Source of the DNA: Minisyncoccota bacterium
GTDB taxonomy: Bacteria; Patescibacteriota; Minisyncoccia; Phycocordibacterales; Phycocordibacteraceae
DNA length: 64,000 nt
Reading direction: 5' to 3'
NCBI GenBank assembly: GCA_022841985.1
Contig: JALHQL010000006.1
Coordinates: forward strand, 16-64,015
This document shows, one piece after another, positions 9,477 to 53,106 of the stretch. The translations under genes and the position numbers were made by a program. The notes under the pieces are model-generated. The model had not been told where the DNA came from. It did not search any database and was given only the letters and a program-made list of their open reading frames with translations. Each line of letters begins with the position of its first letter. Within the stretch, counting starts at the first letter, position 1.

Positions 9477-10190
9477 TTAGCTATGAGCAGATGCTGTCTC
9501 CGCCAAACGTACCGGCGTCTTCTTGTCCTGGTAGACATTGCCGCGATAGATCCATACCTTGATGCCAATGACCCCGTACGGCAAATACGCTTGCTCATGG
9601 GCAAAATCTATATCAGCACGAAAAGTCTGAAGAGGAATACGACCCTTCTTTGCCTCCTCCTTACGGCTCATTTCAGCACCCCCAAGCCTTCCTGAAAGCG
9701 CGATGCGTACACCCTCGACCTCGCGTACCGCAATAACCTTCTCAACCGTCTGCTTCAATACGCGACGGAAAGGCATACGCTTCTCAAGTCCTTCTGCAAT
9801 CATGTAGGCGACAATCGCAGCATCCGTCTCCGACTGGCGCACTTCATTGATATCGAACTTGACCTGCTTGCCGGCAGGCAAAGCATGCCCGGAGGCCTTC
9901 TGAACGACGGCGGTCAATTCTTTGCGCAGCTTGACCGCATTCTCGCCAGAACGGCCGATAACGAGACCAGGGCGTGCTGTCGAGAGAATGATGCGCAACT
10001 CATTTGCCGAACGCTCGATCTCGATGCCGCTCGTATAGGTCCCGCGTAGCTTTTTCGTAAGGAAGCGACGAATCGTCTCATCTACCTTTATGTTCTCGCG
10101 GTAGGTCTTCTTGTCGGCAGCGAACCAACGACTCTTCCAGTCTCGGATGATGCCGAGGCGGTGTGCAAAAGGATGTACGATATGCGTCAT
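9477..10190 (-). CDS. rpsC: 30S ribosomal protein S3
   Basis: MTHIVHPFAHRLGIIRDWKSRWFA... with KH and S3-C domains. Start at 10190 (cat at 10188-10190). Confidence 0.9.
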   Translation of the reverse strand: MTHIVHPFAHRLGIIRDWKSRWFAADKKTYRENIKVDETIRRFLTKKLRGTYTSGIEIERSANELRIILSTARPGLVIGRSGENAVKLRKELTAVVQKASGHALPAGKQVKFDINEVRQSETDAAIVAYMIAEGLEKRMPFRRVLKQTVEKVIAVREVEGVRIALSGRLGGAEMSRKEEAKKGRIPLQTFRADIDFAHEQAYLPYGVIGIKVWIYRGNVYQDKKTPVRLAETASAHS

Positions 10191-23316: not shown

Positions 23317-23327
23317 AGCGGTATCGA

Positions 23328-34458: not shown

Positions 34459-34466
34459 TTTTGTTT

Positions 34467-34814
34467 TTACAGATGCTTGATGCACGTTGTTGCGGCAGGG
34501 TCGGCTCCGAGACGGGCTTCTTCTATCGCATCGCTGCACACTTTGCATTTTCCGTAGGTTTTTTTATTTATTCTTGAAAGCGCGGCAAGGACAGTGTCGT
34601 ACCTAGCTTCCAGATCCGCAAGAATAGCCGTGTTGCCCTCACGACTCATAATGACATCAGCCTGATCGGCAAGGTCCGCTTCAGTACCCGTCTCCGACGG
34701 AACTGGCTCCCAGTCGCCGAGAACTCTCGGATTCTTCCGCCCGACACTCCCCATCTCAACTTCCAACTTCGCCTTCTCTATTTCGAGTTTTTTCTTATAT
34801 TGTTCAGTTTTCAT
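34467..34814 (-). CDS. DksA/TraR-family C4 zinc-finger protein
   Basis: Coiled-coil N-terminal half, and C-x2-C...C-x2-C ([26 protein letters not shown]). Confidence 0.7.
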
Positions 34815-38371: not shown

Positions 38372-38952
38372 GGCGCAAGAGTCACGGTAATAGTAAACGA
38401 GATATCAGTATCTTTCGCATACGCAGAAATCGGCAGAGCGGCAGAGCGAACGAGCGGCACACTTTCTAGCGCAAGCTGGTAGTTACGAAGCGCGGCGCGT
38501 GTCTCTGAAGTTCCGGAGAGTATAAGTATGCCAGGACTCTTAGGGGTAGCGGGCGTATAGTTCAGTCCGGAAAGGGTGATCCCTGGGCGTACTACGGCGA
38601 GCATCGAACGAATGATCGTACTTGCGGAAGGCGTGTTCGCAAGCGCCGTTAAAATCGCCATGTTATTTGAGAGTTTCGTAAGACGCGTAGCGAATACGGT
38701 TTCATCCTCAGGTGAAATTGCAGATTTTATGTTTGCGAGACGCATCTCTTTTGCACCAGAACTTGCAGCAAGGAAAACATAGGTTGGCAACAACAGCATA
38801 GCTGCGGTACACGTAATCGCCGTTAGAAGCCATGCGATGACGACGATAACGCGCAGAACATAGTCGCGGGAGAGAGTGCGCTGCCGCTCAAAAGGAAGAA
38901 GATTGGTAAATTCGTTGTGCATACTGTTATGCATGATGATCACGCAGTGCAA
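38368..38952 (-). CDS. pilN: PilN-like type IV pilus assembly membrane protein
   Basis: Single TM segment (VIVVIAWLLTAITCTAAMLLLPTYVFL). Translationally coupled to pilM. Confidence 0.5.
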   Translation of the reverse strand: MHCVIIMHNSMHNEFTNLLPFERQRTLSRDYVLRVIVVIAWLLTAITCTAAMLLLPTYVFLAASSGAKEMRLANIKSAISPEDETVFATRLTKLSNNMAILTALANTPSASTIIRSMLAVVRPGITLSGLNYTPATPKSPGILILSGTSETRAALRNYQLALESVPLVRSAALPISAYAKDTDISFTITVTLAP

Positions 38953-40015
38953 GACCTATTGCTGTCGCGTACGCAAGTGACTCAGTGTAATCAAGCTGTG
39001 GAATCCACGCATCGCGCGAAGCAAAATTAGTGAACACGTCGCCGGTGGTAACGGGAATCCGCAGTGCGCCTTCGAGGTATTCAGGAAACCCGCGTATTGA
39101 GGCATTGCCGCCGGCGAGAATAGCATGCGATACCTTTTCATGGACTCCTTTGAGCGTCTCTTTTTCTTGCCAATAGTCGAGTCGGCGGGAAATCTCATCG
39201 CGAATTGCAGAAACTGTCGAGAGCATCGAAGCAAGATACTCTTCATTCCCCGGTGCGGGGACAATACCTCGTTCGGCCTTCACCACACGCGCTTCGGCAT
39301 CAGTAACGCCGAAATACTTTTGCACGGCGAGCGTGAGCGCATGCCCGCCGATGCTAATTGTTGTTGCAAAACGAGGTATACGCCCAACAACGATGGTCAT
39401 TTTTGTCGTTGTTTTCCCGACATCGATGATGAGTGCCGTCGAAGTATCCCCTTTCGGAAGGAGTGCGCGTGCCATAGCGAACGTCTCCCCTTCGATTGCT
39501 CGTACGCTGATATTCGCCTGATCAAACACCGAGAGCGTATCGTCGACAATACGCCGCGCAAAACCAATACCCGCGACAAGTTTGTCATCGTGCTCGCCTC
39601 GCCCTACCTCAACAATATCGAAGGATGTCTCCGCTGGAGGCAACGGTATGAGCTCGTCGAGACGCTGTTCAATCGCCGTACGCCATCCAGCCCTCCCCAC
39701 ATCTGGGACTGAGGTCTCAAAGAGGTATGCTTTTGACTCCGGCAGCATGATATTAGTCGCGGAGATGCCGGTCGCACGGGCAGCGGCAATGAGCGTATTG
39801 GCTACTGTTGCTCGGTCGACTATCTCGCCACTGACAAACGCCCCCGTAGGCAAAAGTATTTCCGTGCAACTTGCCAAGGTAAGACCCTGGACTCCTTCGG
39901 TGAGACGCACTGCCTTCACACCGCTTGTTGAAAGGTCGATACCCGAAAATGGAAGCGCGAGATACTGCGGTGGAGCGAAGGCGATGCGCAGACGCTTACT
40001 GAAAACGAAAGACAT
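38927..40015 (-). CDS. pilM: PilM, actin-like (FtsA/MreB-fold) type IV pilus assembly ATPase
   Basis: SGIDLSTSGVKAV..., GAFVSGEIVDRATVANTLIAA, IIDVGKTTTKMTIV are characteristic of the PilM/FtsA fold. Confidence 0.7.
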   Translation of the reverse strand: MSFVFSKRLRIAFAPPQYLALPFSGIDLSTSGVKAVRLTEGVQGLTLASCTEILLPTGAFVSGEIVDRATVANTLIAAARATGISATNIMLPESKAYLFETSVPDVGRAGWRTAIEQRLDELIPLPPAETSFDIVEVGRGEHDDKLVAGIGFARRIVDDTLSVFDQANISVRAIEGETFAMARALLPKGDTSTALIIDVGKTTTKMTIVVGRIPRFATTISIGGHALTLAVQKYFGVTDAEARVVKAERGIVPAPGNEEYLASMLSTVSAIRDEISRRLDYWQEKETLKGVHEKVSHAILAGGNASIRGFPEYLEGALRIPVTTGDVFTNFASRDAWIPQLDYTESLAYATAIGLALRDHHA

Positions 40016-40808: not shown

Positions 40809-41129
40809 GTGTATGGTATAACACAACGCATGTATACGTATATGCATGACCTGTCACCGCTCTACTTCCCTCTTGCTCCTGAACTTATGCTCACGGTACT
40901 CCCCTTTCTTATTCTCGTCGCCATCTGGACACTCGCTGTCAAAGGCTACGCGCTCTGGCATGCTGCACGCAATGGGCAAAAAGGGTGGTTCATTGTTCTT
41001 CTCATTATAAACACGCTTGGTATTCTCGAAATCGTATACCTCATTTGGTTCCGTTCTGACAAAAAGAACGCTTCTTATCCTGTGCACGACTCGCATACGC
41101 CAGCGGTGAATTCATCACCGCAGGCATAG
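40809..41129 (+). CDS. small two-TM membrane protein
   Basis: LMLTVLPFLILVAIWTLAV and GWFIVLLIINTLGILEIVYLIWF. Confidence 0.4.
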   Translation: MYGITQRMYTYMHDLSPLYFPLAPELMLTVLPFLILVAIWTLAVKGYALWHAARNGQKGWFIVLLIINTLGILEIVYLIWFRSDKKNASYPVHDSHTPAVNSSPQA

Positions 41130-41171
41130 TAATAATTTTGAAGTCAGCTTCTGTGAATAAGTGAGCAGCGG

Positions 41172-41579
41172 TTGCCCCTACCACTTATAATTGATGCGAT
41201 GAGGGAAACCCAGAGAAAAGGAGACGTCGCTGTTTCGCAAGCGATTGCAACATTTACAAAAGCGGGTTATGACGTCTCTGTTCCCCTTACAGAATCAGCT
41301 GCATATGATTTAATCGTGGAGAGGGACGGATTGATAAAACGGATACAGGTAAAATATTCGACTAGTGGAGAGGTTGACCTTCGTAGAATTCATTCAAACT
41401 CGACTGGGTATGTTGTTAAGAAGCCTAAAAAAGGCGCTTATGATTGGATTTACGTCTTTAAAGCCCTCTCTGAAAAAGAGTATCTTATTATCGACTGCCC
41501 TTTCGGTCGGCGGTCGATAACACCTGGAGTTCAGCATTCTATTAAAGTCGTACTGAAACAATTAGGAGGGGTCGCATAG
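41172..41579 (+). CDS. small PD-(D/E)xK-like nuclease-fold protein (Hjc-type or restriction-endonuclease-like). Tentative.
   Basis: AAYDLIVERDGLIKRIQVKYS fits a D...E-x-K core. Its 3' end overlaps the tRNA-Ser 5' end by about 15 nt. Confidence 0.35.
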   Translation: MPLPLIIDAMRETQRKGDVAVSQAIATFTKAGYDVSVPLTESAAYDLIVERDGLIKRIQVKYSTSGEVDLRRIHSNSTGYVVKKPKKGAYDWIYVFKALSEKEYLIIDCPFGRRSITPGVQHSIKVVLKQLGGVA

Positions 41580-41653
41580 TTGGTCTAGTGCAGTGGACTT
41601 GAAATCCACCGTACCGTAAGGTACCGCGAGTTCGAATCTCGCCCCCTCCGCCA
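41565..41653 (+). tRNA. tRNA-Ser (anticodon TGA) with encoded CCA. Integration target of the adjacent island.
   Basis: ggagggg...cccctcc acceptor, anticodon loop ctTGAaa, long variable arm cgtaccgtaaggtaccg, T-loop ttcgaat, then gCCA. Confidence 0.85.
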
Positions 41654-43147
41654 AAATTGGAAATCGGAATTGGAAGCCGAAATGGGGTCGGCGCGAAGCG
41701 CCGACACAAACGCATTCCCGCCAAGAATTCCCGAATTCAAAAGGTTTTTCCACGCTCCGCGTGGCTCAAAAAAGACGGTTCGATCCTTAATTTGAAAGTT
41801 CGAACCGACTTTTTTGTACAAATGAAGTTTTTCTTCATTTGTACACTCGTTTGCCAATTCCATATTGTATTTCAAAAACTTTTCGGTAAGTTCGAACCGA
41901 TTATTCGCTTTTTGCTCAAAAGCCGATAATTTCTCTTTGAGAAGCTGTTTAGAGCTAACCAAGGCATTTTTGGCGTCGCGATATTCTTCGAGCGACAAAG
42001 CGTTTTCGAGATAAGCATTCATCAGCTTCTCAATCTTGGAATTCAAAAGAGAAATATCGGCTTTTGTTTTGTCTGCAAAAAGCGTAGACGATTGGGCTTC
42101 ACTCAACATATCTTTTCTATTTTCCGCCAACATCCAAGAAGCCCAATCGTCGGGCAAAGAAACTTTTTTGATTTCCTTTTGAATTTCTGAAGTGATGATT
42201 TCTTCGCGACTATACTTTTGTGCGCAAGGATTTTTCCGTTTGGTACATCGCAAATAGTTATGACCTTTCTGCGTTTCGGTGGTAATGAAGCAACCACATT
42301 CTCCGCAACGGAAAAATCCTCTGTACAAAAATGGTTTCAATCCTCGCGACTTCGGTTTAGATTTTCTCATCATCACTTCCTGAACAAAATCAAAAAGTTT
42401 CTTTGTGATAATCGGTTCGTGCTTTCCCTCAAAAATCTCACCATTATATTTCATCAGTCCTGTATAGATAGGATTTTTGAGAAGTTTTTGATAATTCGAC
42501 ACCGCAAGTTCCTTTCCGCTTTTTCGTTTCAATCCAAGTCCGTTAAATTTGTCGCGAAGCTCCCGCAAAGTGAAAGACCCAGACGAATATGCCTCAAATG
42601 TTTTCTTGATTAAGGGTGCGATATTTTTATCAACAACAATTCTCCCGCCGACATTTAGATAGCCAAGTGGAGACATTTGAGGCCATATTCCGTCTTTCAC
42701 TTTGTTTCGCTTACCACGCTTTATATTCTCACTAAGGTTATCTACATAATACTTGGATTGCGAAAAAGCGATGGAAAGCATGAATTTGCCTTGCGGTGTC
42801 GGATCACACCAGAAAGTTGGAAATTTTAGCTCGGCAAGTTTTTCCGTATCGAGCAAGTAGATAATTTTTCCACCATCAACACTATTTCTCGCCAATCTGT
42901 CGGGATGCCATGCCAAAATCCCATTTGCTTCGCCTTGCTCGATACGGAGAAGCATTTCATTAAATACTGGCCGACCTGGTGCTTTAGCAGTTTGTTTCTC
43001 TACAAAAATATCTACCACCTCGATTTGTTCTTTAACCGCCAACTCTTTGAGTTCGGCCAGTTGATCGGAAATGCTTCTCACTTGCCGATCCTCTGTATCG
43101 GTTGATTTGCGAGTGTATATAAAAAACTTTCTGGTGTGATTATTCAT
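41585..43147 (-). CDS. large serine recombinase (resolvase/invertase catalytic domain, recombinase domain, zinc ribbon)
   Basis: FIYTRKSTDTEDRQVRSISDQ (catalytic Ser region), GILAWHPDRLARN, zinc ribbon CGECGCF...YLRC. Start trimmed to MNNHTRKFF at 43147. The open frame continues through IR1-L and antisense through the tRNA, so the true C-terminus is uncertain. Confidence 0.8.
   Translation of the reverse strand: MNNHTRKFFIYTRKSTDTEDRQVRSISDQLAELKELAVKEQIEVVDIFVEKQTAKAPGRPVFNEMLLRIEQGEANGILAWHPDRLARNSVDGGKIIYLLDTEKLAELKFPTFWCDPTPQGKFMLSIAFSQSKYYVDNLSENIKRGKRNKVKDGIWPQMSPLGYLNVGGRIVVDKNIAPLIKKTFEAYSSGSFTLRELRDKFNGLGLKRKSGKELAVSNYQKLLKNPIYTGLMKYNGEIFEGKHEPIITKKLFDFVQEVMMRKSKPKSRGLKPFLYRGFFRCGECGCFITTETQKGHNYLRCTKRKNPCAQKYSREEIITSEIQKEIKKVSLPDDWASWMLAENRKDMLSEAQSSTLFADKTKADISLLNSKIEKLMNAYLENALSLEEYRDAKNALVSSKQLLKEKLSAFEQKANNRFELTEKFLKYNMELANECTNEEKLHLYKKVGSNFQIKDRTVFFEPRGAWKNLLNSGILGGNAFVSALRADPISASNSDFQFWRRGRDSNSRYLTVRWISSPLH
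41648..41767. repeat. IR1-L, a 120-bp inverted repeat whose outer end is the tRNA-Ser 3' terminus (CCGCCA)
   Basis: Exact reverse complement of 43170-43289, checked base by base. Confidence 0.9.
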
Positions 43148-43169
43148 AATATTGTATTGGCAAACGAGT

Positions 43170-43289
43170 GAGCCACGCGGAGCGTGGAAAAACCTTTTGA
43201 ATTCGGGAATTCTTGGCGGGAATGCGTTTGTGTCGGCGCTTCGCGCCGACCCCATTTCGGCTTCCAATTCCGATTTCCAATTTTGGCGG
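43170..43289. repeat. IR1-R, inverted copy of IR1-L, ending in GGCGG
   Basis: Perfect 120-bp match to the reverse complement of 41648-41767. Confidence 0.9.
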
Positions 43290-43558
43290 TGTGTATTGGA
43301 CGAAGTTCGAATGTATTTCGGACAAAATCCGCAGGATTTTGACGACTAATCGCACGCGCGGAGCGCGTGGTGGCTTGAAACTGCATTGTACGCTCCGATA
43401 CTGTGCCAACACGAACGAATGCGCCTCGGACACGCTCGCGGACTCGCGTGTGCAAAAACCAAAAAATTTCCTTGCATTTTTCTCGCGTCTCCTCCCCCCA
43501 CCCCTCCACCGCGAAGCGGAAAAAGAAATGGAAAGGAAATTTTTGGTTTTGCTTCGCC
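43285..43558. repeat. IR2-L, a 274-bp structured repeat starting at the shared GGCGG core
   Basis: Reverse complement matches 49219-49492 almost exactly. It has internal hairpins (cacgcgc-gga-gcgcgtg, caaaatcc-gcag-ggattttg) and an internal inverted copy of ggaaatttttggtttt. The ORFs predicted inside it are artefacts of repeat DNA. Confidence 0.85.
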
Positions 43559-43662
43559 GTAGCCATAACAATATTATTTTGCACACTTGTATTATAACTT
43601 AACATTGAGTCAAAACACAAGAGAGTGCTATAATTAACCATGTTGATAAGTTTTTATATAAT

Positions 43663-43872
43663 ATGGCAAAATCCACAGCACAAAAATTTGGTGAGAACAT
43701 GAAAAAGATACGGCTCGAAAAAGGTATGTCGCAAGGCGACATTTGCCGTGAGTTAGGGTTAGACCGAGCGTATATTAGTAATGTTGAGAATGGCAAACAA
43801 AATCTTACCATTAGCACAATGGAAAAGGTCGCCAAGGCGCTGAGTGTGAGTATTGATATACTTCTGAAATAA
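43663..43872 (+). CDS. XRE/Cro-type HTH protein, probably the controller (C) protein of the restriction-modification system
   Basis: 69 aa. MSQGDICRELGLDRAYISNVENGKQNLTISTMEKVAKAL. Directly upstream of the M and R genes. Palindrome ttgagtcaa lies about 40 nt upstream. Confidence 0.65.
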   Translation: MAKSTAQKFGENMKKIRLEKGMSQGDICRELGLDRAYISNVENGKQNLTISTMEKVAKALSVSIDILLK

Positions 43873-43879
43873 TAATCAT

Positions 43880-45544
43880 ATGGCAAAGTTAAAAGACACC
43901 CCAAAACATGATAGACCTCGCGAGAAATTTCTCGAAAAAGGAAGCGACGCTCTGACCGACAGTGAGTTGTTGGCTATTTTGCTTGGAAGCGGTATCAAAG
44001 GAACCAACGTCAAATTACTTGCACAAAAAATATCTCGAAAATTTGGTGACAAGCTCATGGATGCGACAGTGGAGGATCTCGTACAGATTCCGGGTATCGG
44101 AAATGCCAAAGCTCTGCAAATTGCCTCAATGTTTGCACTGGCAAATCGAATGTATGAAAAGCACAACGGGGATGAGGAGCACAAAGTATTATCGGCGCTT
44201 GATGCAGCACGATTAGTCCCCGAATTAAAAACCGCAAAAAAGGAACATCTGGTTTGTCTTTACCTTAATGCACGAAGTGTATTGGTTCACAAAGAGATTG
44301 TTTCAGTTGGCACATTGGACAAAAGTATTATTCACCCCCGAGAAGTTTTTGCGCCTGGACTTGAAAAGCACGCCGCGAGCGTCATAGTTATTCATAATCA
44401 CCCATCAGGCGACCCTTCACCGAGTGACGAAGATAAACAAGTTGCCGCTCGAATTGTCGAAGCAGGCAAAATTGTCGGTATCAACGTACTTGATTTTCTT
44501 ATTATCGCGGAGCGAGGTGTACACAGCATTCTCGCAGAGTTGCAAAAAGTTGAGCCGAAAGCAACCGATTATGTTGCCGAAGGCAACCAAGGATCACTTT
44601 TTGATCTGCTTGTGGATTCTCGCCATATGTATTTTCTCGGAGTAAACGATAAAGCACCCGAACCTATAACAAAAACCAAACATAAGTTTATCGATCTCTT
44701 TGCAGGTATTGGTGGTTTCCATGTTGCCTTTCATAATGCGGGCGCTGAATGTGTGTTTGTGTCCGAATGGGACGAAAAAGCGCGAACTACGTACAGACAC
44801 AACTTTTATAAAGTATCTCCCGATATATTTAGAAATGGCAATTTCGTTGGCGATATCACTAAGGTGAACGAAAAAGAAATGCCTGATTTTGACATCATTA
44901 CGGGCGGCTTTCCTTGCCAGCCATTTTCACAAGCAGGTTTCAAGAAAGGTTTTAATGAAGCACGCGGCACATTGTTTTTTGATGTAGTTCGCCTTATGAA
45001 AGAAAAGAAACCTAAGGCATTTTTCCTTGAAAACGTGCGGGGTCTTTACGCACACGATGGAGGAAAAACATTTGAAACAATTAAGCGCATCATTGAAGAA
45101 GATCTCGGCTATTCATTCCATGCAAAAATCATTAAAGCATCAGATTTTGGTATGCCACAACACCGTCCGCGTTTGTTTATGGTCGGTTTCAGGGACGGAC
45201 ATGATTTTGAATGGCCCGAACCAGTCAATGAATTGAAATACACAATGTCCGATATTTTCGGTGGAAAGTGTAATAAAGATGTCGGCTTTACACTTCGTGT
45301 AGGAGGTCGCGGAAGCCAGATCACTGATCGACGCAACTGGGACGCGTATCGCGTGGATGGAAAAGTAGTCCAGCTCGGACCTAAAGAGGGCTTGAAAATG
45401 CAAGGATTCCCCGAGTGGTTTGAGTTTCCTGAAGATGTATCGTCAGTACAGTCTATGAAGCAGCTCGGCAACTCTGTCGCTGTACCTGCAATTCAAGCTG
45501 TTGCGGAAAGAATAATTGAAACACTAGAAAAATATGACAAATAA
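43880..45544 (+). CDS. fusion protein of an N-terminal RadC-like JAB/MPN domain and a C-terminal C5 cytosine DNA methyltransferase
   Basis: RadC HhH (VQIPGIGNAKALQI) and JAMM motif (IVIHNHPSGDPSPSDED). MTase motifs I FIDLFAGIGGFHVAF, IV GGFPCQPFSQAG, VI ENVRGL, VIII QHRPRLFMVGF, X KQLGNSVAVP. Confidence 0.8.
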   Translation: MAKLKDTPKHDRPREKFLEKGSDALTDSELLAILLGSGIKGTNVKLLAQKISRKFGDKLMDATVEDLVQIPGIGNAKALQIASMFALANRMYEKHNGDEEHKVLSALDAARLVPELKTAKKEHLVCLYLNARSVLVHKEIVSVGTLDKSIIHPREVFAPGLEKHAASVIVIHNHPSGDPSPSDEDKQVAARIVEAGKIVGINVLDFLIIAERGVHSILAELQKVEPKATDYVAEGNQGSLFDLLVDSRHMYFLGVNDKAPEPITKTKHKFIDLFAGIGGFHVAFHNAGAECVFVSEWDEKARTTYRHNFYKVSPDIFRNGNFVGDITKVNEKEMPDFDIITGGFPCQPFSQAGFKKGFNEARGTLFFDVVRLMKEKKPKAFFLENVRGLYAHDGGKTFETIKRIIEEDLGYSFHAKIIKASDFGMPQHRPRLFMVGFRDGHDFEWPEPVNELKYTMSDIFGGKCNKDVGFTLRVGGRGSQITDRRNWDAYRVDGKVVQLGPKEGLKMQGFPEWFEFPEDVSSVQSMKQLGNSVAVPAIQAVAERIIETLEKYDK

Positions 45545-46625
45545 AACTAAAACAACTCTCACAGGTAACAAAGGCGAATGGTCTGAGTTCTATGCCTTTA
45601 TTAAAATCCTGACTGACGGGAAAGTTTTTACTGCTGACAAAAATCTAAAAATCCTTGAGGAACATTTTCATATTGTCCTAAAAATTATCCGACAAGAAGC
45701 GATTGGAAAGAAAGAATACGACATCTCAAGAAACGATGGCAAAGTTATTGTATCTGATGAAAATGCAGAGATATCAATAATTGATCTTGAAAAAATCAAA
45801 GGGAGTGTCGCCAACGTTTTTGAGCAAATTAAAAATTCCAAAGGCACGACATTTGAAGTCGCGAGCGCGGCAAGTCCGATGCACGATCTTCACTGTACTC
45901 AAATGCGTGCTTCGAGTGGTAAAAAAGCCGACTTGACCATTGTTCTGCATGATAAAAAATCTCCCGAATTCCCAGAACTCGGTTTCAGTATCAAATCAAT
46001 GCTCGGTTCTCCGGCAACACTCCTAAATGCTTCTGGTGCTACAAATTTTCTATACCGCATTGCAACAGAAGATAATAAGCCCGTACAAAGTAGTGATGAT
46101 ATGTCGGTGAGAGATGCGACAAAACTGACGTATGGTGTCGGTGCACAACTTGAGTTTATTGGAATGGATAGCGATGTTTTCCGTCGTAATCTGCGAAAAA
46201 TTGATTCCATATTTCCCGAAATAGTTGCTCAAATGTTGCGACATTACTACATGGGAGAAGCGACTACAATCAATGATCTCGCAAACAAAATTGCAGATGA
46301 TTCCGTCTTTATGGAGCGAATCGACTTTACCAAAGAAATGCTGATAATGAACATCAAACGTTTCCTATCAAGCATTGCCCTCGGAATGATGCCAAGCAAA
46401 GATTGGGACGGATACACCGAAGCGCATGGCGGATATATCATCGTTAAAGAAGACGGTGATGTTGTCTGCTACCATCTCTATAACCGCGACAAATTTGAGG
46501 ACTATCTATTCCATAACACAAAACTCGATACGCCTAGCACTACTCGTCATGGATTTGGGAAAATCTATAAAGAAAATGACGAACAAAGAATGAAGCTTAA
46601 TTTACAAATACGATTTTTGAAATAA
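45534..46625 (+). CDS. probable cognate type II restriction endonuclease (363 aa). Family not assignable by eye; an HpaII-like family is possible.
   Basis: Start overlaps the MTase stop (ATGACAAATAA). Size and position fit an R gene. No catalytic motif is confidently identified. Confidence 0.45.
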   Translation: MTNKTKTTLTGNKGEWSEFYAFIKILTDGKVFTADKNLKILEEHFHIVLKIIRQEAIGKKEYDISRNDGKVIVSDENAEISIIDLEKIKGSVANVFEQIKNSKGTTFEVASAASPMHDLHCTQMRASSGKKADLTIVLHDKKSPEFPELGFSIKSMLGSPATLLNASGATNFLYRIATEDNKPVQSSDDMSVRDATKLTYGVGAQLEFIGMDSDVFRRNLRKIDSIFPEIVAQMLRHYYMGEATTINDLANKIADDSVFMERIDFTKEMLIMNIKRFLSSIALGMMPSKDWDGYTEAHGGYIIVKEDGDVVCYHLYNRDKFEDYLFHNTKLDTPSTTRHGFGKIYKENDEQRMKLNLQIRFLK

Positions 46626-46803
46626 AAAATTGCCAGATGTTGTGTAAGCAAGACAATCGAACGAAGTTGGGGAAATAAGCCACAAAGCGAAAAGTGCTTG
46701 ATTTGTATTGATAAGAGAGTAATCCTTACTTTGGCGCTTGACTCCTTATTTTAAGGCGCGTATAATAGATACGCGGTTATTTATTTTACTTATCAATCAA
46801 TTT

Positions 46804-47031
46804 ATGGAAGAAAAATCATCGGTAAATAAGTCAAAAATTGAGAAAAAGATGAACGTTATCATTTCTTTGCTTTTGAAAATTGCAAATGATGGGGGTACGG
46901 TAAGTCTAAAAGAGCAAGTGCGTGACCTTGCCTCATTTGGTTTGGATTCAGCAGAGATTGCCGAAATTACAGGTAAAAAGGTGGGGCATGTTAGTAAAGA
47001 ATTATCAGTATTAAAAAAGGAGAGTAAATAG
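46804..47031 (+). CDS. mini HTH protein 1 (75 aa), first of four tandem paralogs
   Basis: MNVIISLLLKIA...FGLDSAEIAEITGKKVGHVSKEL. Lrp/AsnC-like or sigma70-region-4-like HTH. Confidence 0.5.
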   Translation: MEEKSSVNKSKIEKKMNVIISLLLKIANDGGTVSLKEQVRDLASFGLDSAEIAEITGKKVGHVSKELSVLKKESK

Positions 47032-47034
47032 CCT

Positions 47035-47256
47035 ATGGAAAACAAAAATGACATTTTACAACAAGTCTCGAAGAAACTGAGTATTTTAATCGCACTCCAG
47101 CTTCAGGGTGAGAATAAAGTGGTTGAGGTAAAAGAAAACGTGGAAAAACTTTCCAGATTCGGACTTACAGACAGTGAGATCGCAGAAATCCTCGGCACCA
47201 CAGCAGGTACCGTATCAGTTGCTAAAGCTAGAATTAAAAAAGCTAGATCAAAATAA
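47035..47256 (+). CDS. mini HTH protein 2 (73 aa)
   Basis: LSILIALQLQGE...FGLTDSEIAEILGTTAGTVSVAKARIKK. Starts 3 nt after the paralog 1 stop. Confidence 0.5.
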   Translation: MENKNDILQQVSKKLSILIALQLQGENKVVEVKENVEKLSRFGLTDSEIAEILGTTAGTVSVAKARIKKARSK

Positions 47257-47259
47257 AGT

Positions 47260-47436
47260 ATGGCAAAGAATAAACAAAATCGTGATCCCCTTGAAGACGT
47301 GCGAGAAACTCTAAAAAGTATTCTCGTACTAGAATTATTTAAGTTAAATATTCCGCAGGTGGATATTGCTAAAAAGTTGCGAATGGACTTAAACGCGGTG
47401 AATGCCTTCCTGAAAGGAATTAAGAAAGATAAATAA
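47260..47436 (+). CDS. mini HTH protein 3 (58 aa)
   Basis: LKSILVLELFKLNIPQVDIAKKLRMDLNAVNAFLKGI. Below the ORF-track size cutoff. atg at 47260, taa at 47434-47436. Confidence 0.4.
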   Translation: MAKNKQNRDPLEDVRETLKSILVLELFKLNIPQVDIAKKLRMDLNAVNAFLKGIKKDK

Positions 47437-47437
47437 T

Positions 47438-47602
47438 ATGGGTAGAAAAACTAAAAGCGAAAAACTGGAGCCTTTGGAGGAGATTAAACGACTACTTGTT
47501 CTCGGGCTTATAAATCAGGGCGTAAAAGGAAAAGACATCGCCGCCATTCTGGAGGTTGATCCAGCAATTATTAGTCGTTTGATTTCATCTACGAAAAAAT
47601 AG
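47438..47602 (+). CDS. mini HTH protein 4 (54 aa)
   Basis: IKRLLVLGLINQGVKGKDIAAILEVDPAIISRLI. atg at 47438, 1 nt after the paralog 3 stop. Confidence 0.4.
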   Translation: MGRKTKSEKLEPLEEIKRLLVLGLINQGVKGKDIAAILEVDPAIISRLISSTKK

Positions 47603-47605
47603 TAT

Positions 47606-48184
47606 ATGGCAGACCGACTCAACCCCGACATTATGGAGGTACTCGTTAAGAAGACGGATAAGACAGCCGAACAAATTCGTCCGCGCCTCTCTGAACTTCG
47701 TCGCAAGTATAGCGGTCTCACAATGAACGCTGCTGCTCAGATGTACGCACAATCGCACGGCACTTCCATTATGACGAAGCTTGACCAAGGCGACCGACAA
47801 TCGCTCGCTACGGTACAAGCAATTACTCAAGTGAGCGTATCCAGCGTTTCAAAGGTAGATAAACGCACGCTAAATATAAATAACTCGCCGATACATAACC
47901 TTTCATTTGGTGACCGAAATCAAATAAATCAAAGTGTTGTGACGCTCGACAATGCACTCACTGAGTTATCTGAAAAAATCAGCAAAAGCACAGTACTGAC
48001 TGACGACGAAAAGAATGACTACAAGTCTGATATACAAACTATTGCAAGTCAGGCTGGAAAAAGTAAACCGAACAGGCAAATCATCAAAGTAGCATGGGAG
48101 AGCGTTAAGGCGCTTGCGGACATAGAAGGCTTTGCCCAATTGGTCGGCAGGATTACTCCGCTTATTCAAGGATTTTTTTCATAA
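47606..48184 (+). CDS. hypothetical protein (192 aa), upstream partner of the HEPN-like protein
   Basis: Stop at 48184, next start at 48186. The N-terminus resembles the mini-HTH proteins weakly. Confidence 0.45.
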   Translation: MADRLNPDIMEVLVKKTDKTAEQIRPRLSELRRKYSGLTMNAAAQMYAQSHGTSIMTKLDQGDRQSLATVQAITQVSVSSVSKVDKRTLNINNSPIHNLSFGDRNQINQSVVTLDNALTELSEKISKSTVLTDDEKNDYKSDIQTIASQAGKSKPNRQIIKVAWESVKALADIEGFAQLVGRITPLIQGFFS

Positions 48185-48185
48185 T

Positions 48186-48887
48186 ATGTCTCAACGCCTT
48201 GATCCAATTCTATTAAAGAAACTTGCCGATAAAATTGGTAAGTCCATCAAATATACGCGCGAGCAAAATGCCAAACGTGCTTCAAGAGCGGGCGTTTCTT
48301 CCGAAGCCTATTTTTTATATTGGCTGAAAGAAAAGAAAATTGGCTTTCAAAAGTACAAGCGTTCTTTGCCTGTTGATGTTCAAAACGAAGCAAGAACACT
48401 CACAGGCACTCCACAACACACAACAAGCACCACATCTAATCGTGTGGGACACACCGAAACACTCACTGCTTCATCGCGCTATATCGATTTACTCGAAATG
48501 ATTCAGGATGATGAGCTTAGAGATAGATGTGCGGATCTTATAAAACGACCAAGGAATCATGACAGAGTTTTTAGAGAAGCCACAACTATTCTTGAACATC
48601 GGGTCAAGAATTTGAGTGGTATTACACAAAGAATGAACCCGCAAGCATTAATTGGGAAAGCAATTGCGCCTGATCCTGCGCGAGCTATTTTAGTGGTCAG
48701 CAGTGATTCCAGTGAGCAAGAAGGTTTTTACAAAATTTGCGCTGGTATTGAAGCAGCATTCCGCAACCGCACCCATCATGAAGTCTCGAACAAGCTCACA
48801 CGTAATGACGCGATAAAATTTTGTGGCTTCATTGACTCACTGTTACTTGTGCTTGTTAATGCAGAAGTACATCAAGAACGGATTTAG
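48186..48887 (+). CDS. protein with a C-terminal HEPN-like (Abi_C / TIGR02391-like) domain. Candidate abortive-infection RNase.
   Basis: C-terminal EQEGFYKICAGIEAAFRNRTHHE contains R-x4-H. Start atg at 48186. Confidence 0.45.
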   Translation: MSQRLDPILLKKLADKIGKSIKYTREQNAKRASRAGVSSEAYFLYWLKEKKIGFQKYKRSLPVDVQNEARTLTGTPQHTTSTTSNRVGHTETLTASSRYIDLLEMIQDDELRDRCADLIKRPRNHDRVFREATTILEHRVKNLSGITQRMNPQALIGKAIAPDPARAILVVSSDSSEQEGFYKICAGIEAAFRNRTHHEVSNKLTRNDAIKFCGFIDSLLLVLVNAEVHQERI

Positions 48888-49218
48888 CTAAAGGGAGCCG
48901 TCCACGTCAGTGGACGGGCTTCTGTGCGCGCATAGGGTGGGTGGGGCAAGCACATACAGATTTGTTTGTGCCCTAGCACAATCCATTTTTCTTTGAGTAA
49001 CTACTAACCTCTCTCGAAGTCACTGAGCGAACGCACACAACGCCGAAGCAGCCAGCGCGAGCGAATGCGAGCGGGCTATGTGTAGGCGGTTGTGTGTGTT
49101 CGCGGACGTTAGAGCTACTACTAAACGTCGCTATGGCACGCGCCTCGGTCGCCACAAGGAAATGGAGCAAACGGGCTTCAATGTGATAACTTTGTTGCCC
49201 TTTGTGGAGTTTCCTTGT

Positions 49219-49492
49219 GGCGAAGCAAAACCAAAAATTTCCTTTCCATTTCTTTTTCCGCTTCGCGGTGGAGGGGTGGGGGGAGGAGACGCGAGAAAAA
49301 TGCAAGGAAATTTTTTGGTTTTTGCACACGCGAGTCCGCGAGCGTGTCCGAGGCGCATTCGTTCGTGTTGGCACAGTATCGGAGCGTACAATGCAGTTTC
49401 AAGCCACCACGCGCTCCGCGCGTGCGATTAGTCGTCAAAATCCTGCGGATTTTGTCCGAAATACATTCGAACTTCGTCCAATACACACCGCC
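49219..49492. repeat. IR2-R, inverted copy of IR2-L, ending in CCGCC followed by A
   Basis: 274 bp. Base-by-base reverse complement of 43285-43558. Confidence 0.85.
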
Positions 49493-49672
49493 AGAAGTCC
49501 GAGTTAGAACCAAAGCAAAGTAAGGGTTTTAATACAACTAAACTCAAAATAAAACATCCATCTAAAATATGGGTGTTTTGCTTATTGGTGGCACTTATCC
49601 ACAATAGGGCACTTTACAAGAAAGAGATAATTGTATAGGATCATACTATCACTTAACAGCTATCATTAATTT

Positions 49673-51340
49673 ATGAAAAACACCGAGGAAAATAAAATTG
49701 AAACAATAGACATTACTCCCGATAAAAGCATTTATCACAAAATCGGGGAGGCAAATTACTCGATTTCTGACGCACTCGCAGAATTAGTGGATAACTCAAT
49801 TGATGCCGCAAATGACAATGGTGTCGAGATTTATATCGTTTTAGACAAGAAAGACGAGAAAATTGTCATTGAGGACAATGGAAAGGGAATGAGCAAAGAA
49901 ATAGCTTCAAAAAGCTTGGTACTAGCCCATTCTAAAAAGCACGAGGCACTAGGTGAATTCGGTTTGGGACTAAAGTCCGCATGCACCAGTTTAGGAACAA
50001 TCTTTTCTATAACAAGTACACCTGAAGGTTCTGAAGAAAGATACTCTCTTGAATATAATAAGGAACAATTTTTAAAATCAGATGACTGGCATCATTACCC
50101 TCTCGCAATATCAAAAGCTCCAAAAAATGAACACGGAACAAGAATAGAAATCAGTAATTTGCGAATAAAATTATATGACGCTCAAGTAACACGTCTCAAG
50201 GATGACTTAGCTAAAAGATATGGACCATACATTGAACACAACAATGTTGTCATTAAAGTTGGTTTAAAAAGAGAGACGGCAAAGCCTTGTGTGCCAAGTG
50301 AAATTAAACTCGTTGAAGGTTCGAAGAAAGAATTTTCATACATGCTCTCAAAAGGAGCCACCATTACAGGTTGGTATGGTTTATCAGAGGTCGGATCACA
50401 AAAACAAAGTGGTTTTAATATGTTTCGTAGGGGGCGTCTTATACGATCATCGGAAAAGCTTGGTTATAATTACCACCCACATCTAATGAGTATTGTCGGA
50501 GAAATTAATTTGGACTCCGTCCCAGTCACACATAACAAACGAGAATTTATTATTGAATCAGGGGAATTCAAAGAGTTTATTAAAGAATTCTGGGGTGATC
50601 AGACCGAGAAATATTTAGGCCAAAAAGTGAAGGGAATGATTGATGAAGTAACAAAGACAGCTAGAGATCGATCAAACCAAGAAAAAGCTGATAGCATGCC
50701 GACTGAAAAGAAAGAGACTATAAAAAATAACTTATTGAATGCTCTTAACCGACTAGACGAATTCAAAGAGCTGGCCTATCCAGATCTGTATCAACCTAAA
50801 AAAAGGTCTGCGAGCGGAAAAGAGGACCCAAAAGAATCAAGAGAAACTGATTTACGTGTAGCCAGGGAGGAAGAAATCAAACCTACAAAAGAGGAGGAGA
50901 GGGATCAGAGAACGCCCAAAAAAACACAACCAAAAACGGCCAAATTTATCATGGTTGGTGGAAAAAAATTCAAATTCGATTTCTTTTTGAAGAATTTGGC
51001 AAATGACACCATCGACAAAGAGACAGTTATCAATCAGGAAAACGTTATTGAAATATACATTAATACGGGATTTAAAGGTTACGGCTTGACGAAAGATTCT
51101 GATTTTTATTCTACTTTCCACATAGCAGAGGCGATTGCTGAACTTTATGTTAAAGAAGCTGGTCAAAAAATGGAAAGGGTCTTTGAATTACGAAACGGTC
51201 TTATATATGAAGTGGCGTCGTTAATCTATGAAGAAGAAGAGTATAAGAAACTAGAGAAGACTGAAAAAGAACTAGTCGCAGTAACTGAAAAGAGGAAAGA
51301 GTTGGAAGAAAAAAGAACAAGAACAAGTTTAAAAATATAA
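49673..51340 (+). CDS. GHKL-superfamily ATPase (HATPase_c_3, prokaryotic MORC-like) with a charged coiled C-terminal region
   Basis: N-box ELVDNSIDA, G1 IEDNGKGM, G2 GEFGLGLKSA. Confidence 0.75.
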   Translation: MKNTEENKIETIDITPDKSIYHKIGEANYSISDALAELVDNSIDAANDNGVEIYIVLDKKDEKIVIEDNGKGMSKEIASKSLVLAHSKKHEALGEFGLGLKSACTSLGTIFSITSTPEGSEERYSLEYNKEQFLKSDDWHHYPLAISKAPKNEHGTRIEISNLRIKLYDAQVTRLKDDLAKRYGPYIEHNNVVIKVGLKRETAKPCVPSEIKLVEGSKKEFSYMLSKGATITGWYGLSEVGSQKQSGFNMFRRGRLIRSSEKLGYNYHPHLMSIVGEINLDSVPVTHNKREFIIESGEFKEFIKEFWGDQTEKYLGQKVKGMIDEVTKTARDRSNQEKADSMPTEKKETIKNNLLNALNRLDEFKELAYPDLYQPKKRSASGKEDPKESRETDLRVAREEEIKPTKEEERDQRTPKKTQPKTAKFIMVGGKKFKFDFFLKNLANDTIDKETVINQENVIEIYINTGFKGYGLTKDSDFYSTFHIAEAIAELYVKEAGQKMERVFELRNGLIYEVASLIYEEEEYKKLEKTEKELVAVTEKRKELEEKRTRTSLKI

Positions 51341-51341
51341 A

Positions 51342-52754
51342 ATGAGTCAGACCCTTAAGCGAGCAAACGAATATTTTGGGGTAACTGAGTCTGACTATAA
51401 GAAGACTGGCGCATTTAATCCGGTCATCGGTGTAGACAGCTTATTTTTTGTAGATCCGCTACTGCTCTCTAAAACAAGAATACCTGAGTTCAAGGATGCT
51501 CAAAAAGAGGTGCGTGATTATTTTGCTAGTGTCATCACACTTATCAGAAGTGGTAATCAAAAAGCAAAAGCACTAGCTCACAAGAAACTTATTTTAAGAG
51601 AGGTTAGGGGTATCGGCATAGGTTACGGTAGTACATCTGATGATGGTTCCGCCATTGGTCCAAAACTTGCAAAACGTTTGTTAAATACTGCAGAGGAACT
51701 CATCCAGATGGGTATTACCGATCCAGCCATCTTTGAAGTCATGGGTCTTTTTGAGGAAGATTTTGGGCCAGATCGACTTAGTGACGGCTTGACACGCATT
51801 CTTCTCAAACGCGTCTGCCAATATTCTGAACGAATCACGAAAGAACTCAAAATTATAGATACATATACACTAACTACTTATGAGAGAAAGTACACTCTAA
51901 CAAAACACCCCCTTAAAGATGGGCCTTTGCTTTTCGTGCCCCAAGGCATATTGCGAGATCTCCCGATAGCGAATAGTTTTGAGGAGATTAGTGTAGTTGC
52001 AATTTTTAATGAAGATCTGAGAAAGAAATTTAATTCTATTCTGGCATCCTGTTTTGCTGGAGATAAAAATAAAAAGCCCAAGAAATCTGAAATTAAGAAA
52101 TATCTCCTAGAAACGAAAGATGGAATCAAAACAGTTGTTGCGGCATATCAGTCATGTAGTCCTGAATCGTATAATTTTGACACCGATCCTTCTGGTTTAT
52201 ATCTGTGGCTTGAGAAAGCAAAACAGTTAGCTCGTGAGAACCCAATTTCACTTCCATCAAAACCAAAACAAGGTGATATTGATGATGTGGTACAGAAAGT
52301 TATACAGGCATTTAAAAGAGGAATTGAATCTAAGGGTTGGTGGAAATCACTTTATAACGAGAGTAAGGAATCACTGAATGAAAGCCACGCAAGACATTTC
52401 TTTTATGCAACCGCGCTCTTGTATTGCGAAGCATGTGATATTGATATTTCACCCGAATCAAATGCTGGTCAAGGTCCAGTAGATTTCAAATTGAGCCGTG
52501 GTCACAAAAAGATAGTTGTTGAAATAAAATTAACTTCAGGACATGTTCGACAAGGTTATGAAAAACAAACACGAATATATGAAGAAAGTGAAGATGCTGA
52601 AGCTAGTTATTTCCTTGTTGTTCAAGTAACAGAGAAAAGTAAAGTTCTGCAAAAGGTGCTTAAAATGGAGGAAGTGGAAGAAAAGGAGGGTAAAAAACAC
52701 CCGACAATCGTAGTTGTGGATGGGCGAGAGAAACCGTCAGCAAGTCACGCCTAG
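51342..52754 (+). CDS. partner protein (470 aa) with a C-terminal PD-(D/E)xK nuclease-like motif
   Basis: GQGPVDFKLSRGHKKIVVEIKLTSG fits PD...(E)xK. Start is 2 nt after the GHKL stop. Confidence 0.5.
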   Translation: MSQTLKRANEYFGVTESDYKKTGAFNPVIGVDSLFFVDPLLLSKTRIPEFKDAQKEVRDYFASVITLIRSGNQKAKALAHKKLILREVRGIGIGYGSTSDDGSAIGPKLAKRLLNTAEELIQMGITDPAIFEVMGLFEEDFGPDRLSDGLTRILLKRVCQYSERITKELKIIDTYTLTTYERKYTLTKHPLKDGPLLFVPQGILRDLPIANSFEEISVVAIFNEDLRKKFNSILASCFAGDKNKKPKKSEIKKYLLETKDGIKTVVAAYQSCSPESYNFDTDPSGLYLWLEKAKQLARENPISLPSKPKQGDIDDVVQKVIQAFKRGIESKGWWKSLYNESKESLNESHARHFFYATALLYCEACDIDISPESNAGQGPVDFKLSRGHKKIVVEIKLTSGHVRQGYEKQTRIYEESEDAEASYFLVVQVTEKSKVLQKVLKMEEVEEKEGKKHPTIVVVDGREKPSASHA

Positions 52755-52924
52755 TCATATTTACTTTTCAATAGAATAATCAACTGCATTTTGCCCTTTA
52801 TCTGAGTTTGGTTTAGGCGTCTCAAACCACTCCGGATGCTCCTTATGCATTTTCCTCAGTTTTTGTATACTTGTATCAAGAATCCAGAAATTAAAGCGTC
52901 TTTTTGGTTCTAATTTCGGGACAT

Positions 52925-53106
52925 CGTCACCGCCGCGAAGCGGAAAAAGAGGAAAGGAAATTTTTGGTTTGCCTGCGCGAGTCCGCGAGCGCGGTCGAGG
53001 CGCGTTCCAGCGCAATCGGAGCGTACGCTTCGGGTTCAAGCCACCACGCGCTCCGCGCGTGCGAAGTGGGTTCGAGCAAAGGTGATACACTCACCGCCTC
53101 AAAAGA
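52925..53106. repeat. third, degenerate IR2-family copy, ending in CACCGCC
   Basis: cgcgaagcggaaaaagaggaaaggaaatttttggttt...gcgcgagtccgcgagcg...ccaccacgcgctccgcgcgtgcg...caccgcc aligns to IR2 with indels. Confidence 0.6.

Follow-up and report, generated by a model that had tools for sequence, protein, structure and literature searches.

The subject of this analysis is a restriction-modification (RM) operon in the window, by which we mean the whole 64,000-nt stretch (positions 16 to 64,015, forward strand) of contig JALHQL010000006.1 from the Minisyncoccota bacterium assembly GCA_022841985.1; coordinates refer to this window. The operon is a complete Type II RM system with a controller, made up of three genes (Table 1): a control (C) gene of XRE type; a methylase (M) gene whose product of 554 amino acids (aa) joins an N-terminal RadC protein to a C5 cytosine methyltransferase; and a gene for an HpaII-family restriction endonuclease (R). 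The C gene ends 7 nt before the M gene, the start of the R gene overlaps the stop of the M gene by 11 nt, and the opposite-strand open reading frames (ORFs) across 43663-46625 are short and overlap the three genes. The endonuclease covers the complete RE_HpaII profile of Pfam (positions 1-359 of 359), and members of its cluster carry the name 'HpaII family restriction endonuclease'. An earlier, sequence-only reading of this DNA had described the three ORFs as C-M-R, with an XRE-type C gene ahead of the fusion and a candidate endonuclease gene overlapping the M stop, and had proposed comparing the latter with the HpaII family; all three ORFs were found and the profile matches bear out each assignment. 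The order C-M-R, instead of C-R, is atypical for RM systems controlled by C proteins. Directly 5' of the C gene lie two overlapping candidate promoters, TTGAGT-18-TATAAT with an extended -10 TG and TTAACC-17-TATAAT. That this is an RM system, and that the fusion within it is real, we regard as practically certain.

Table 1. Positions of the RM operon genes, the parts of the fusion protein (fusion residue numbers) and other features of the window
Feature	Position	Strand	Basis or remark
C gene, 69 aa, XRE/HTH_3 type	43663-43872	+	Pfam HTH_3 2.8e-16; PADLOC Control_protein 9e-18
RadC-C5 methyltransferase fusion gene, 554 aa + stop codon	43880-45544	+	Pfam, NCBIfam
HpaII-family Type II endonuclease gene, 363 aa	45534-46625	+	RE_HpaII PF09561 5.9e-107; PADLOC REase_II 3.5e-92
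Two overlapping sigma-70-like promoter matches, directly 5' of C gene	43605-43662	+	consensus match only
UPF0758_N, RadC N-terminal helix-hairpin-helix region, aa 5-78	43892-44113	+	PF20582, 81.7 bits, 4.2e-23
RadC JAB/MPN domain, aa 109-217	44204-44530	+	PF04002, 120.7 bits, 4.4e-35
JAMM metal site, E122	44243-44245	+	
JAMM metal site, H172-x-H174...S182..D185	44393-44434	+	
Conserved linker motif, aa 230-246, D-Y-V-A-E-G-N-Q-G-S-L-F-D-L-L-V-D	44567-44617	+	alignment
Spacer between linker motif and methyltransferase, aa 247-268	44618-44683	+	alignment
C5 cytosine methyltransferase domain, aa 269-554	44684-45541	+	PF00145, 1e-77
tRNA-Ser(tga)	41565-41653		
Large serine recombinase, abutting tRNA-Ser(tga)	41585-43147	-	Resolvase, Recombinase, Zn_ribbon_recom domains
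121-nt perfect inverted repeats around the serine recombinase	41648-41768 / 43169-43289		1400 nt between arms
278-nt perfect inverted repeats around the RM cassette and downstream cargo	43281-43558 / 49219-49496		5660 nt between arms
Third, diverged copy of the 278-nt repeat, island right edge	52930-53064		83-90% identity, partial; same orientation as the 49219-49496 arm
PD-(D/E)XK_5 endonuclease gene, 135 aa, island left edge	41172-41579		2.6e-18; PADLOC homing-endonuclease 5e-8
Four small tandem ORFs (97, 73, 58 and 54 aa)	46738-47602		
192-aa protein	47606-48184		weak match to PADLOC candidate PDC-M14B
251-aa TIGR02391/Hypoth_Ymh protein	48132-48887		
MORC-like GHKL ATPase	49673-51340		HATPase_c_3 1.5e-21; Morc6_S5; weak MzaB and BbrUII-type matches
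470-aa partner protein	51342-52754		no Pfam match; weak PADLOC PDC-M36A 8.9e-10
683-aa ORF, host part	23328-25379	-	no Pfam match at 1e-5
644-aa ORF, host part	25382-27316	-	no Pfam match at 1e-5
ComM-type Mg-chelatase-like helicase, host flank	32926-34548		
PilM-like protein, host flank	38927-40015		label by reading the translation

The fusion protein consists, in one frame, of RadC, a 46-aa linker and a 286-aa methyltransferase. Its RadC half passes the NCBIfam equivalog cut-off for RadC (NF000642, 209.4 bits against 180) and that of TIGR00608 (191.2 bits; cut-off 133.85), its methylase half exceeds the cut-off of TIGR00675 (dcm), and the RadC homologue of PDB entry 2qlc aligns to the RadC half with an E-value of 2.9e-22. 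Stand-alone Pfam models of the helix-hairpin-helix (HhH) score slightly under their cut-offs, and the HhH-containing UPF0758_N model scores well above its own. The sequence-only reading had recognised an N-terminal RadC/JAB domain with HhH and JAMM motifs and a complete C5 methyltransferase with motifs I, IV, VI, VIII and X, and both identifications stand: the JAMM string IVIHNHPSGDPSPSDED is present at aa 169-185, and in an alignment of 69 fusion homologues (53-98% identity), to which the residue counts below refer, the metal-site residues E122, H172, H174, S182 and D185, the HhH-region residues G72, I73, G74 and K77, and the methylase motifs I (FAGIGG, 274-279), IV (GFPCQ, 343-347), VI (ENV, 384-386), VIII (QxRxR, 427-431) and X (GN, 530-531) are all invariant. 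Its reservation that profile searches might place the N-terminal part outside JAB/RadC did not hold, NF000642 being passed. Where it had likened the domain to the RadC-like domains of mobile DNA with anti-restriction roles, the RadC identity is right and the type is not, for this is a full-length RadC of YicR type; a short mobile-element RadC-like (YeeS-type) domain is rejected because the RadC equivalog model is passed and the HhH N terminus is present.

The best solved relative of the methylase is M.HhaI (213 bits by sequence, E-value 8.7e-26 by fold), and a fold search with the full-length model returned C5 methylases only. An AlphaFold 2 (AF2) model of the 554-aa fusion (mean predicted local distance difference test score, pLDDT, 81.7; predicted template modelling score, pTM, 0.59) depicts two predicted well-folded halves that are not rigidly packed together. 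Experimental structures are limited to the JAB domain by itself (2qlc) and to C5 methylases without a fusion partner.

The fusion is widespread and maintained. In a collection of 5.8 billion proteins, 118 of the best 120 clusters (90% identity level), the ones inspected, are full-length two-domain proteins with 49-98% identity; the named homologues among them come nearly all from the candidate phyla radiation (Parcubacteria/Paceibacterota, Moranbacteria, Beckwithbacteria, Gracilibacteria and Kerfeldbacteria), a spread that is taken from protein-database names, and a genome-collection query with the one protein gave close relatives only, at 13 loci. The fusion protein of the window is found identical in public data, within a cluster of 84 members that annotation pipelines label 'DNA repair protein RadC' or 'DNA (cytosine-5)-methyltransferase 1'. 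At all 10 independent fused genome loci the same reading frame is kept, and at all 10 an HpaII-family R gene lies directly downstream of M. The ratio of nonsynonymous to synonymous substitution rates (dN/dS) against close relatives ranges over 0.01-0.04 in the RadC half and 0.03-0.10 in the methylase half; judged by these ratios, purifying selection on the RadC half is very strong, and no weaker than on the methylase. The in-frame fusion that the sequence-only reading had described is therefore genuine. The linker contains no conserved internal methionine (position 250 is Met in 12 of the 69 homologues), which leaves an internal translation start for a separate methylase unsupported.

Unfused methylases about 70% identical to the methylase half, beginning at the equivalent of fusion aa 263-270, are paired with HpaII-type endonucleases in related bacteria (loci L011-L013), and the existence of these relatives indicates that the fusion is the derived state. 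One relative with 99% identity (L014 5001-6690; ENA ERZ27275109, k141_15012) has a frameshift right after QGSLF, which splits the protein into overlapping ORFs for RadC (241 aa) and methylase (324 aa); the locus lacks the HpaII-type R gene and looks like a decaying or orphan-methylase form of the cassette. Its serine recombinase is merely 40% identical to that of the window. A C homologue lies upstream of the fusion in L001, L002, L004, L007, L014 and L020 and was undetectable in L003, L005, L006 and L010, that is, at 4 of 10 close loci; the C gene is not a constant component of the RadC-methylase unit.

The RadC module is not confined to this methylase family. The nearest relatives of the RadC half plus linker (aa 1-256) are mostly N-terminal RadC modules on DNA methylases, not free RadC. 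The best 120 hits of aa 1-256 include 16 with PF00145, 37 with PF02086 (D12/Dam-type) and at least one with PF01555, and most of the apparent 'RadC-only' hits are fragments off short contigs. An exhaustive, profile-free search of 1.84 billion cluster representatives, with fusions confirmed by Pfam, added further RadC-C5 fusions, in clusters at 50% identity (P0240, P0243, P0249 and P0326) whose similarity to the query ends before the target-recognition region, as well as RadC-D12 fusions (P0258, P0278) and a RadC-N6_N4 fusion (P0369). In sum, the module sits on at least five other C5 methylase lineages as well as on D12 and N6/N4 methylases, and the fusions adjoin at least six endonuclease families: HpaII, HaeII, NgoFVII_C (RE_NgoFVII_C beside the fusion of L021), MTaX1 (L019), a PLDc_2/NgoFVII-like enzyme (L015) and an EcoRV-like enzyme (L016). 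At the HaeII-type locus (L020) the order is a C gene, a RadC-C5 fusion, and then RE_HaeII and Vsr as a gene of its own. Each context examined (the HpaII-type loci, L015, L016 and L019-L021) has a complete, separate endonuclease gene beside the fusion.

This recurrence on three methylase families beside varied endonucleases implies that the role of RadC is independent of methylation chemistry and of target sequence, and we consider it highly probable that the module is functional and generically linked to RM methylases. The sequence-only reading had called a RadC-Dcm fusion in a C-M-R operon unusual, which is so among characterised systems; the arrangement is not rare, and belongs to a large, mostly uncultivated class. 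No description of RadC-methylase fusions was found in the literature, in full-text searching that left out subscription journals and REBASE, and neither the combination nor the linker motif nor the occurrence of the module on further methylases seems to have been described before.

Between the JAB domain and the methylase the linker carries a near-invariant motif with the consensus [DE]-Y-V-A-[ED]-G-x-Q-x-[ST]-L-F-D-L-L-[VE]-[DI], in which Y231, A233 and F241 are invariant and G235, Q237, S239, L240 and D242 are at least 95% conserved (Q237 in 68 of 69, S239 in 66, L240 in 67 and F241 in 69). The spacer that follows is fairly conserved at aa 247-253 and K/N-rich and variable in sequence and length (indels) at aa 254-268. 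The core Q-x-[ST]-L-F, with Q, L and F 98-100% conserved, matches the consensus of bacterial sliding-clamp-binding peptides, which is QL[S/D]LF or more generally QxxLF with positions 1, 4 and 5 critical (PMC12309361); the candidate clamp-binding peptides of the linker are DYVAEGNQGSLFDLLVD and TDYVAEGNQGSLFDLLVDS. A QxxLF-like motif occurs at the same distance from HxH in 199 of the 210 RadC-containing proteins long enough to judge the linker position, including 134 of 138 with C5 and 47 of 47 with D12 methylases. Mobile-element transposases bind host clamps across phyla through this motif (PMC4549789). In the full-length AF2 model, residues 231-250 are among the least confident (pLDDT 54-57). 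No paper linking RadC or a bacterial RM methylase to the clamp was found in the same full-text searching. No dnaN and no second radC were found in the window itself (tblastn; Pfam on 10 of the 40 ORFs of at least 200 aa).

The operon lies on a genomic island of low GC content (about 0.40, against about 0.50 in the host part) at approximately 41000-53000, which starts at the tRNA-Ser(tga) gene. The window is a piece of the chromosome of a candidate-phyla-radiation bacterium; the host part encodes SecY, EF-Tu, EF-G, UvrD, ComM and PilM, and the closest genome loci are Paceibacterota metagenome-assembled genomes (MAGs). From the tRNA gene inward the island carries the serine recombinase, the RM operon, four small ORFs, a 192-aa protein, a TIGR02391/Ymh-type protein, and a GHKL ATPase with its 470-aa partner. 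Related elements stand at tRNA-Ser genes, (gct) or (tga), in L002, L005 and L014. Homology of the window to other loci often starts at the M start and ends right after R, and in L001, L002 and L005 the synonymous divergence (dS) from the window amounts to 0.8-1.1 over the RadC half against 0.08-0.12 over the methylase half, a mosaic that indicates recent recombination near the linker with exchange of modules among close relatives. The RM operon is horizontally mobile. The 90%-identity cluster of the endonuclease includes a Chlorobium phaeovibrioides RefSeq protein (WP_126343450.1), and the near-identical locus L001 is binned as Bacteroidales; either the cassette has crossed between phyla or the contigs concerned are mis-binned or contaminants.

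The target of the system is probably CCGG, as family membership and avoidance of the site on the island suggest. CCGG occurs 4 times at 41001-53100 against 23.8 expected, the lowest ratio among all sixteen 4-mer palindromes, and 174 times in the host flanks against 191 expected, which is no depletion. A deficit is seen on the island for GGCC too (9 observed, 19.8 expected).

The best explanation of these observations as a whole, to which we assign a probability of roughly 0.45, is that of an HpaII-family mobile RM operon with a selected RadC fusion that recruits the methylase. The C5 methyltransferase would protect host DNA by 5-methylcytosine (m5C) formation, and the overlapping endonuclease would cut unmethylated DNA. 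The RadC module would act in cis on a task common to all RM methylases: its HhH region and the QxxLF-type motif could guide the methylase, with the beta sliding clamp as the probable contact, to DNA associated with replication or recombination; freshly made DNA, unmethylated or hemimethylated, would then receive its methyl groups ahead of any attack by the cognate endonuclease; and the JAB hydrolase would perform some processing step on DNA or on a DNA-bound protein. Genetic work on radC, as represented in the passages of PMC12302355 and PMC9674854 that cite Saveson and Lovett (1999), concerns recombination provoked by replication-fork defects or damaged forks, and this sole genetic phenotype ascribed to radC is compatible with recruitment to the fork. 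The fusion may couple methylation to processing of incoming or damaged DNA, as the sequence-only reading had proposed.

Several points weigh against this explanation. The conserved stretch spans 17 residues, whereas a typical clamp motif spans 5-6. An AF2 model of RadC and the linker only, built with 115 diverse sequences, gives the motif a pLDDT of 66-76, two short beta bridges and a helix at 240-246; on this prediction the linker motif could be a binding element that folds conditionally, or else the RadC domain could simply extend into it as a small folded addition. The most divergent fusions read QLTLTDLL, QLTLADAF or QITLSEYY and have lost the Phe at motif position 5, although they retain Q, L and two downstream hydrophobic residues. 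Canonical stand-alone RadC proteins end earlier and are without the motif (for example ...SLKAKGLF in P0229), from which it follows that clamp binding is not a general RadC property. RadC proteins have, to our knowledge, never been assigned a biochemical activity. Family membership and site avoidance are the sole support for CCGG specificity, and no C-box operator was identified 5' of the C gene, where palindromes were judged by eye and without comparative operator analysis. Targeting of the methylase to the clamp or the replication fork by the linker motif is, taken separately, a tentative and rather doubtful proposal. A stronger form, in which RadC plus the Qx[ST]LF module would be a clamp-tethered, DNA-dependent hydrolase coupling RM methylases to the fork, by analogy the counterpart of DNMT1-PCNA maintenance methylation, seems to us unlikely as it stands; if true, the fusions would reveal what RadC does in the cell, namely to act in association with forks or recombination and there to remove or process an obstacle on newly made DNA.

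An alternative, which we likewise judge unlikely, takes the RadC JAB domain for a DNA-tethered metalloprotease, by analogy with SPRTN/Wss1 or the metalloprotease domain of ArdC, that would either cleave its own chain at the linker motif and free the methylase, or remove DNA-bound proteins, such as a stalled methylase or the cognate endonuclease, where methylation is incomplete. All biochemically characterised JAB/JAMM domains are peptidases according to the passages on these domains in PMC3239186, and those of PMC5512222 have peptidase domains processing multidomain mobile-element proteins. In the fusions, the JAMM residues are invariant, the conserved motif lies about 10 residues past the JAB domain as a possible cis cleavage site, and the frameshift after QGSLF in L014 shows that the halves are able to exist apart, although that split copy has also lost its R gene and may be decaying. 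The usual cleavage context of JAMM enzymes is Gly-Gly, which is absent from the linker motif. Aravind's group argues, in the RadC passages of PMC5512222, that RadC is without the groove that holds the ubiquitin tail. The neighbouring endonucleases are of unrelated folds, which makes a specific protease-substrate pair unlikely, and covalent trapping occurs with C5 methylases only, yet the same module is carried by N6-adenine methylases; a protease dedicated to covalently trapped C5 methylases is weakened by these adenine-methylase fusions.

It is improbable that the RadC JAB domain instead processes nucleic acids, as a nuclease or otherwise, and thereby equips the methylase for repair, whether at T:G mismatches left by m5C deamination, in the manner of Vsr, or at nicked or flapped intermediates. 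The original HpaII locus has a vsr-like gene, and the HhH DNA-binding region is kept and conserved in the fusions. The RadC passages of PMC3239186 and PMC5512222 give contextual arguments for a nuclease: among related DinG helicases RadC stands where others have a 3'-5' exonuclease, and its fold is akin to that of the nucleotide-acting deaminases. Nuclease activity has, however, never been shown for RadC, and the 554-aa fusion has no Vsr homology by Pfam. The RadC-C5 fusion of L020, with its HaeII-family endonuclease, keeps a separate Vsr, so that RadC is no replacement for Vsr there, and D12 adenine methylases, for which the repair of deaminated bases is of no concern, carry the module just as often. 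Both facts weaken explanations based on m5C chemistry, and substitution for Vsr as a general explanation is rejected on them.

A comparably low likelihood attaches to the idea that the RadC module serves the mobile element itself, in establishment in a new host or in natural transformation, for instance by binding incoming single-stranded or newly converted DNA and so securing its early methylation, or in counteracting resident restriction. There is a precedent for such early methylation in DpnA of the pneumococcal DpnII system. The cassette is mobile, with homology among loci that stops sharply at the ends of the M and R genes; its island lies at tRNA-Ser and encodes a serine recombinase; members of its R-gene cluster occur even in Chlorobium; and the dS mosaic between its RadC and methylase halves shows recombination. 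ComM-type and PilM-like genes in the host flank are consistent with a type IV pilus and competence machinery, regarded as important in the candidate phyla radiation, and this bears on the transformation variant. C5 methylases generally need duplex DNA, however, and the fusion is the sole methylase of its system, so that maintenance methylation is required of it as well. Nor would the protein be transferred with the DNA, so that the element would go unprotected at first entry. RadC-like genes do accompany anti-restriction genes on mobile elements, where they are also fused to ArdC (PMC12458937 and the RadC passages of PMC3239186), but the RadC of the fusion is of the housekeeping YicR type and not of the short mobile-element type.

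That the fusion is a neutral accident or an artefact, arising by loss of a stop codon between radC and M or by a sequencing frameshift, is very improbable and is rejected, for although L014 at 99% identity carries the halves as separate overlapping ORFs and unfused M genes occur with HpaII-type R genes at about 70% identity, more than 115 clusters, with identities as low as 49%, and 10 independent assemblies all share the frame, the 49-98% spread excludes copies of one misassembled sequence, no internal Met is conserved, the RadC module recurs across three methylase families, and its dN/dS is low.

The remaining features of the island concern its repeats and its cargo. Both pairs of inverted repeats are perfect in the window, the arms of the 278-nt pair (I1) being 100% complementary, and L002, an independent MAG, has corresponding pairs (1292-1412 / 2813-2933 and 2930-3202 / 9520-9792) that are each 100% complementary within L002 and 4-7% diverged from those of the window. 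The arms are therefore homogenised within each genome by concerted evolution, which suggests active inversion or gene conversion at the repeats. The recombinase ORF reads through one 121-nt arm, and inversion would swap its last approximately 20 residues. The third copy of the 278-nt repeat may mark an older island junction. A structured RNA in this repeat is unsupported, as it has no Rfam match and folding z-scores of -1.1 and -1.6.

The four small ORFs directly follow the R gene, the first two being 40% identical to each other; the first (97 aa), the only one scanned, has no Pfam or PADLOC match, and a strong promoter-like site, TTGACT-17-TATAAT, overlaps its start. The gene for the 192-aa protein overlaps by 53 nt that for the 251-aa TIGR02391/Hypoth_Ymh protein, a family common in defence or abortive-infection contexts. 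From the R gene to the right repeat arm, the window and L001 carry different cargo. Outside the right arm, the GHKL ATPase and its partner form a two-gene unit that is probably a further defence module. At the left edge of the island, the PD-(D/E)XK_5 endonuclease gene ends 15 nt inside tRNA-Ser. In the host part, the 683- and 644-aa ORFs are adjacent, and the GC content dips to 0.41 at 23001-24000 with a strong AT skew.

The RM system itself is an ordinary Type II system; the class of fusions to which it belongs offers an uncommon opening for experiments on RadC. RadC occurs across most bacterial lineages, in competence regulons and on many mobile elements, and we know of no biochemical activity or clear phenotype that has been assigned to it; a 2008 paper is reportedly titled 'RadC, a misleading name?'. 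A paper of 2025 still calls it poorly characterised. That full-length RadC has repeatedly been joined, under strong selection, to RM methylases from three unrelated families is a clean functional association, and it would place the work of RadC on DNA where and when new methylation is needed, whatever the base or sequence. Two-domain fusions are also tractable, as RadC activity could be read through methylation, endonuclease tolerance or clamp binding. For RM biology, the fusions add an accessory module and a candidate clamp-binding motif such as no paper that we found describes for a bacterial methylase. Bacteria of the candidate phyla radiation depend heavily on restriction-modification for defence, and the fusion class points to an elaboration of RM typical of these lineages. 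The whole account is built on sequence and predicted structure.

Comparison with known systems sets the fusion apart from each of them. The catalogued RadC fusions, namely ArdC-RadC, DnaG primase-RadC, DinG/Rad3 helicase-RadC and the polyvalent proteins of conjugative elements (Iyer et al. 2011, 2017; RadC passages of PMC3239186 and PMC5512222), resemble it in that RadC is an accessory to DNA-acting, often mobile proteins and usually keeps its catalytic residues; they differ in the partner, which is here an RM methyltransferase, a kind that those passages do not name. The polyvalent proteins differ further, as the fusion of the window has two domains inside an RM operon and is not a giant protein of a conjugative element. 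Stand-alone RadC/YicR (NF000642, TIGR00608, 2qlc) shares the HhH N terminus and the JAB domain with its E...HxH...S..D site, but is a free protein of about 220-230 aa, whereas the RadC of the window runs on into the 17-aa motif and then the methyltransferase. DNMT1 of eukaryotes is tethered to PCNA through a PIP box in its flexible N-terminal region, and, if the linker binds the clamp, the analogy would be that of a C5 methylase anchored to the replication fork by a short motif of Q-x-x-L type, with the difference that the beta clamp of bacteria shares no sequence homology with PCNA and that DNMT1 is without JAB or RadC. The single-chain RM enzymes of Type IIG/IIC likewise place a hydrolase-type domain N-terminal to a DNA methyltransferase in an RM locus; the domain fused here is a JAB domain and not a PD-(D/E)XK, HNH, PLD or GIY-YIG nuclease, and a separate R gene is present. 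The closest counterpart, the HpaII system itself (R.HpaII/M.HpaII, CCGG with the inner cytosine methylated), has an endonuclease of the family whose full RE_HpaII profile is matched here, a monomeric-type C5 methyltransferase with canonical motifs, and adjacent, co-directional M and R genes, and its CCGG site is the one avoided on the island; the operon of the window differs from it in having a C gene before M and a methylase with a 268-aa N-terminal extension of RadC and linker.

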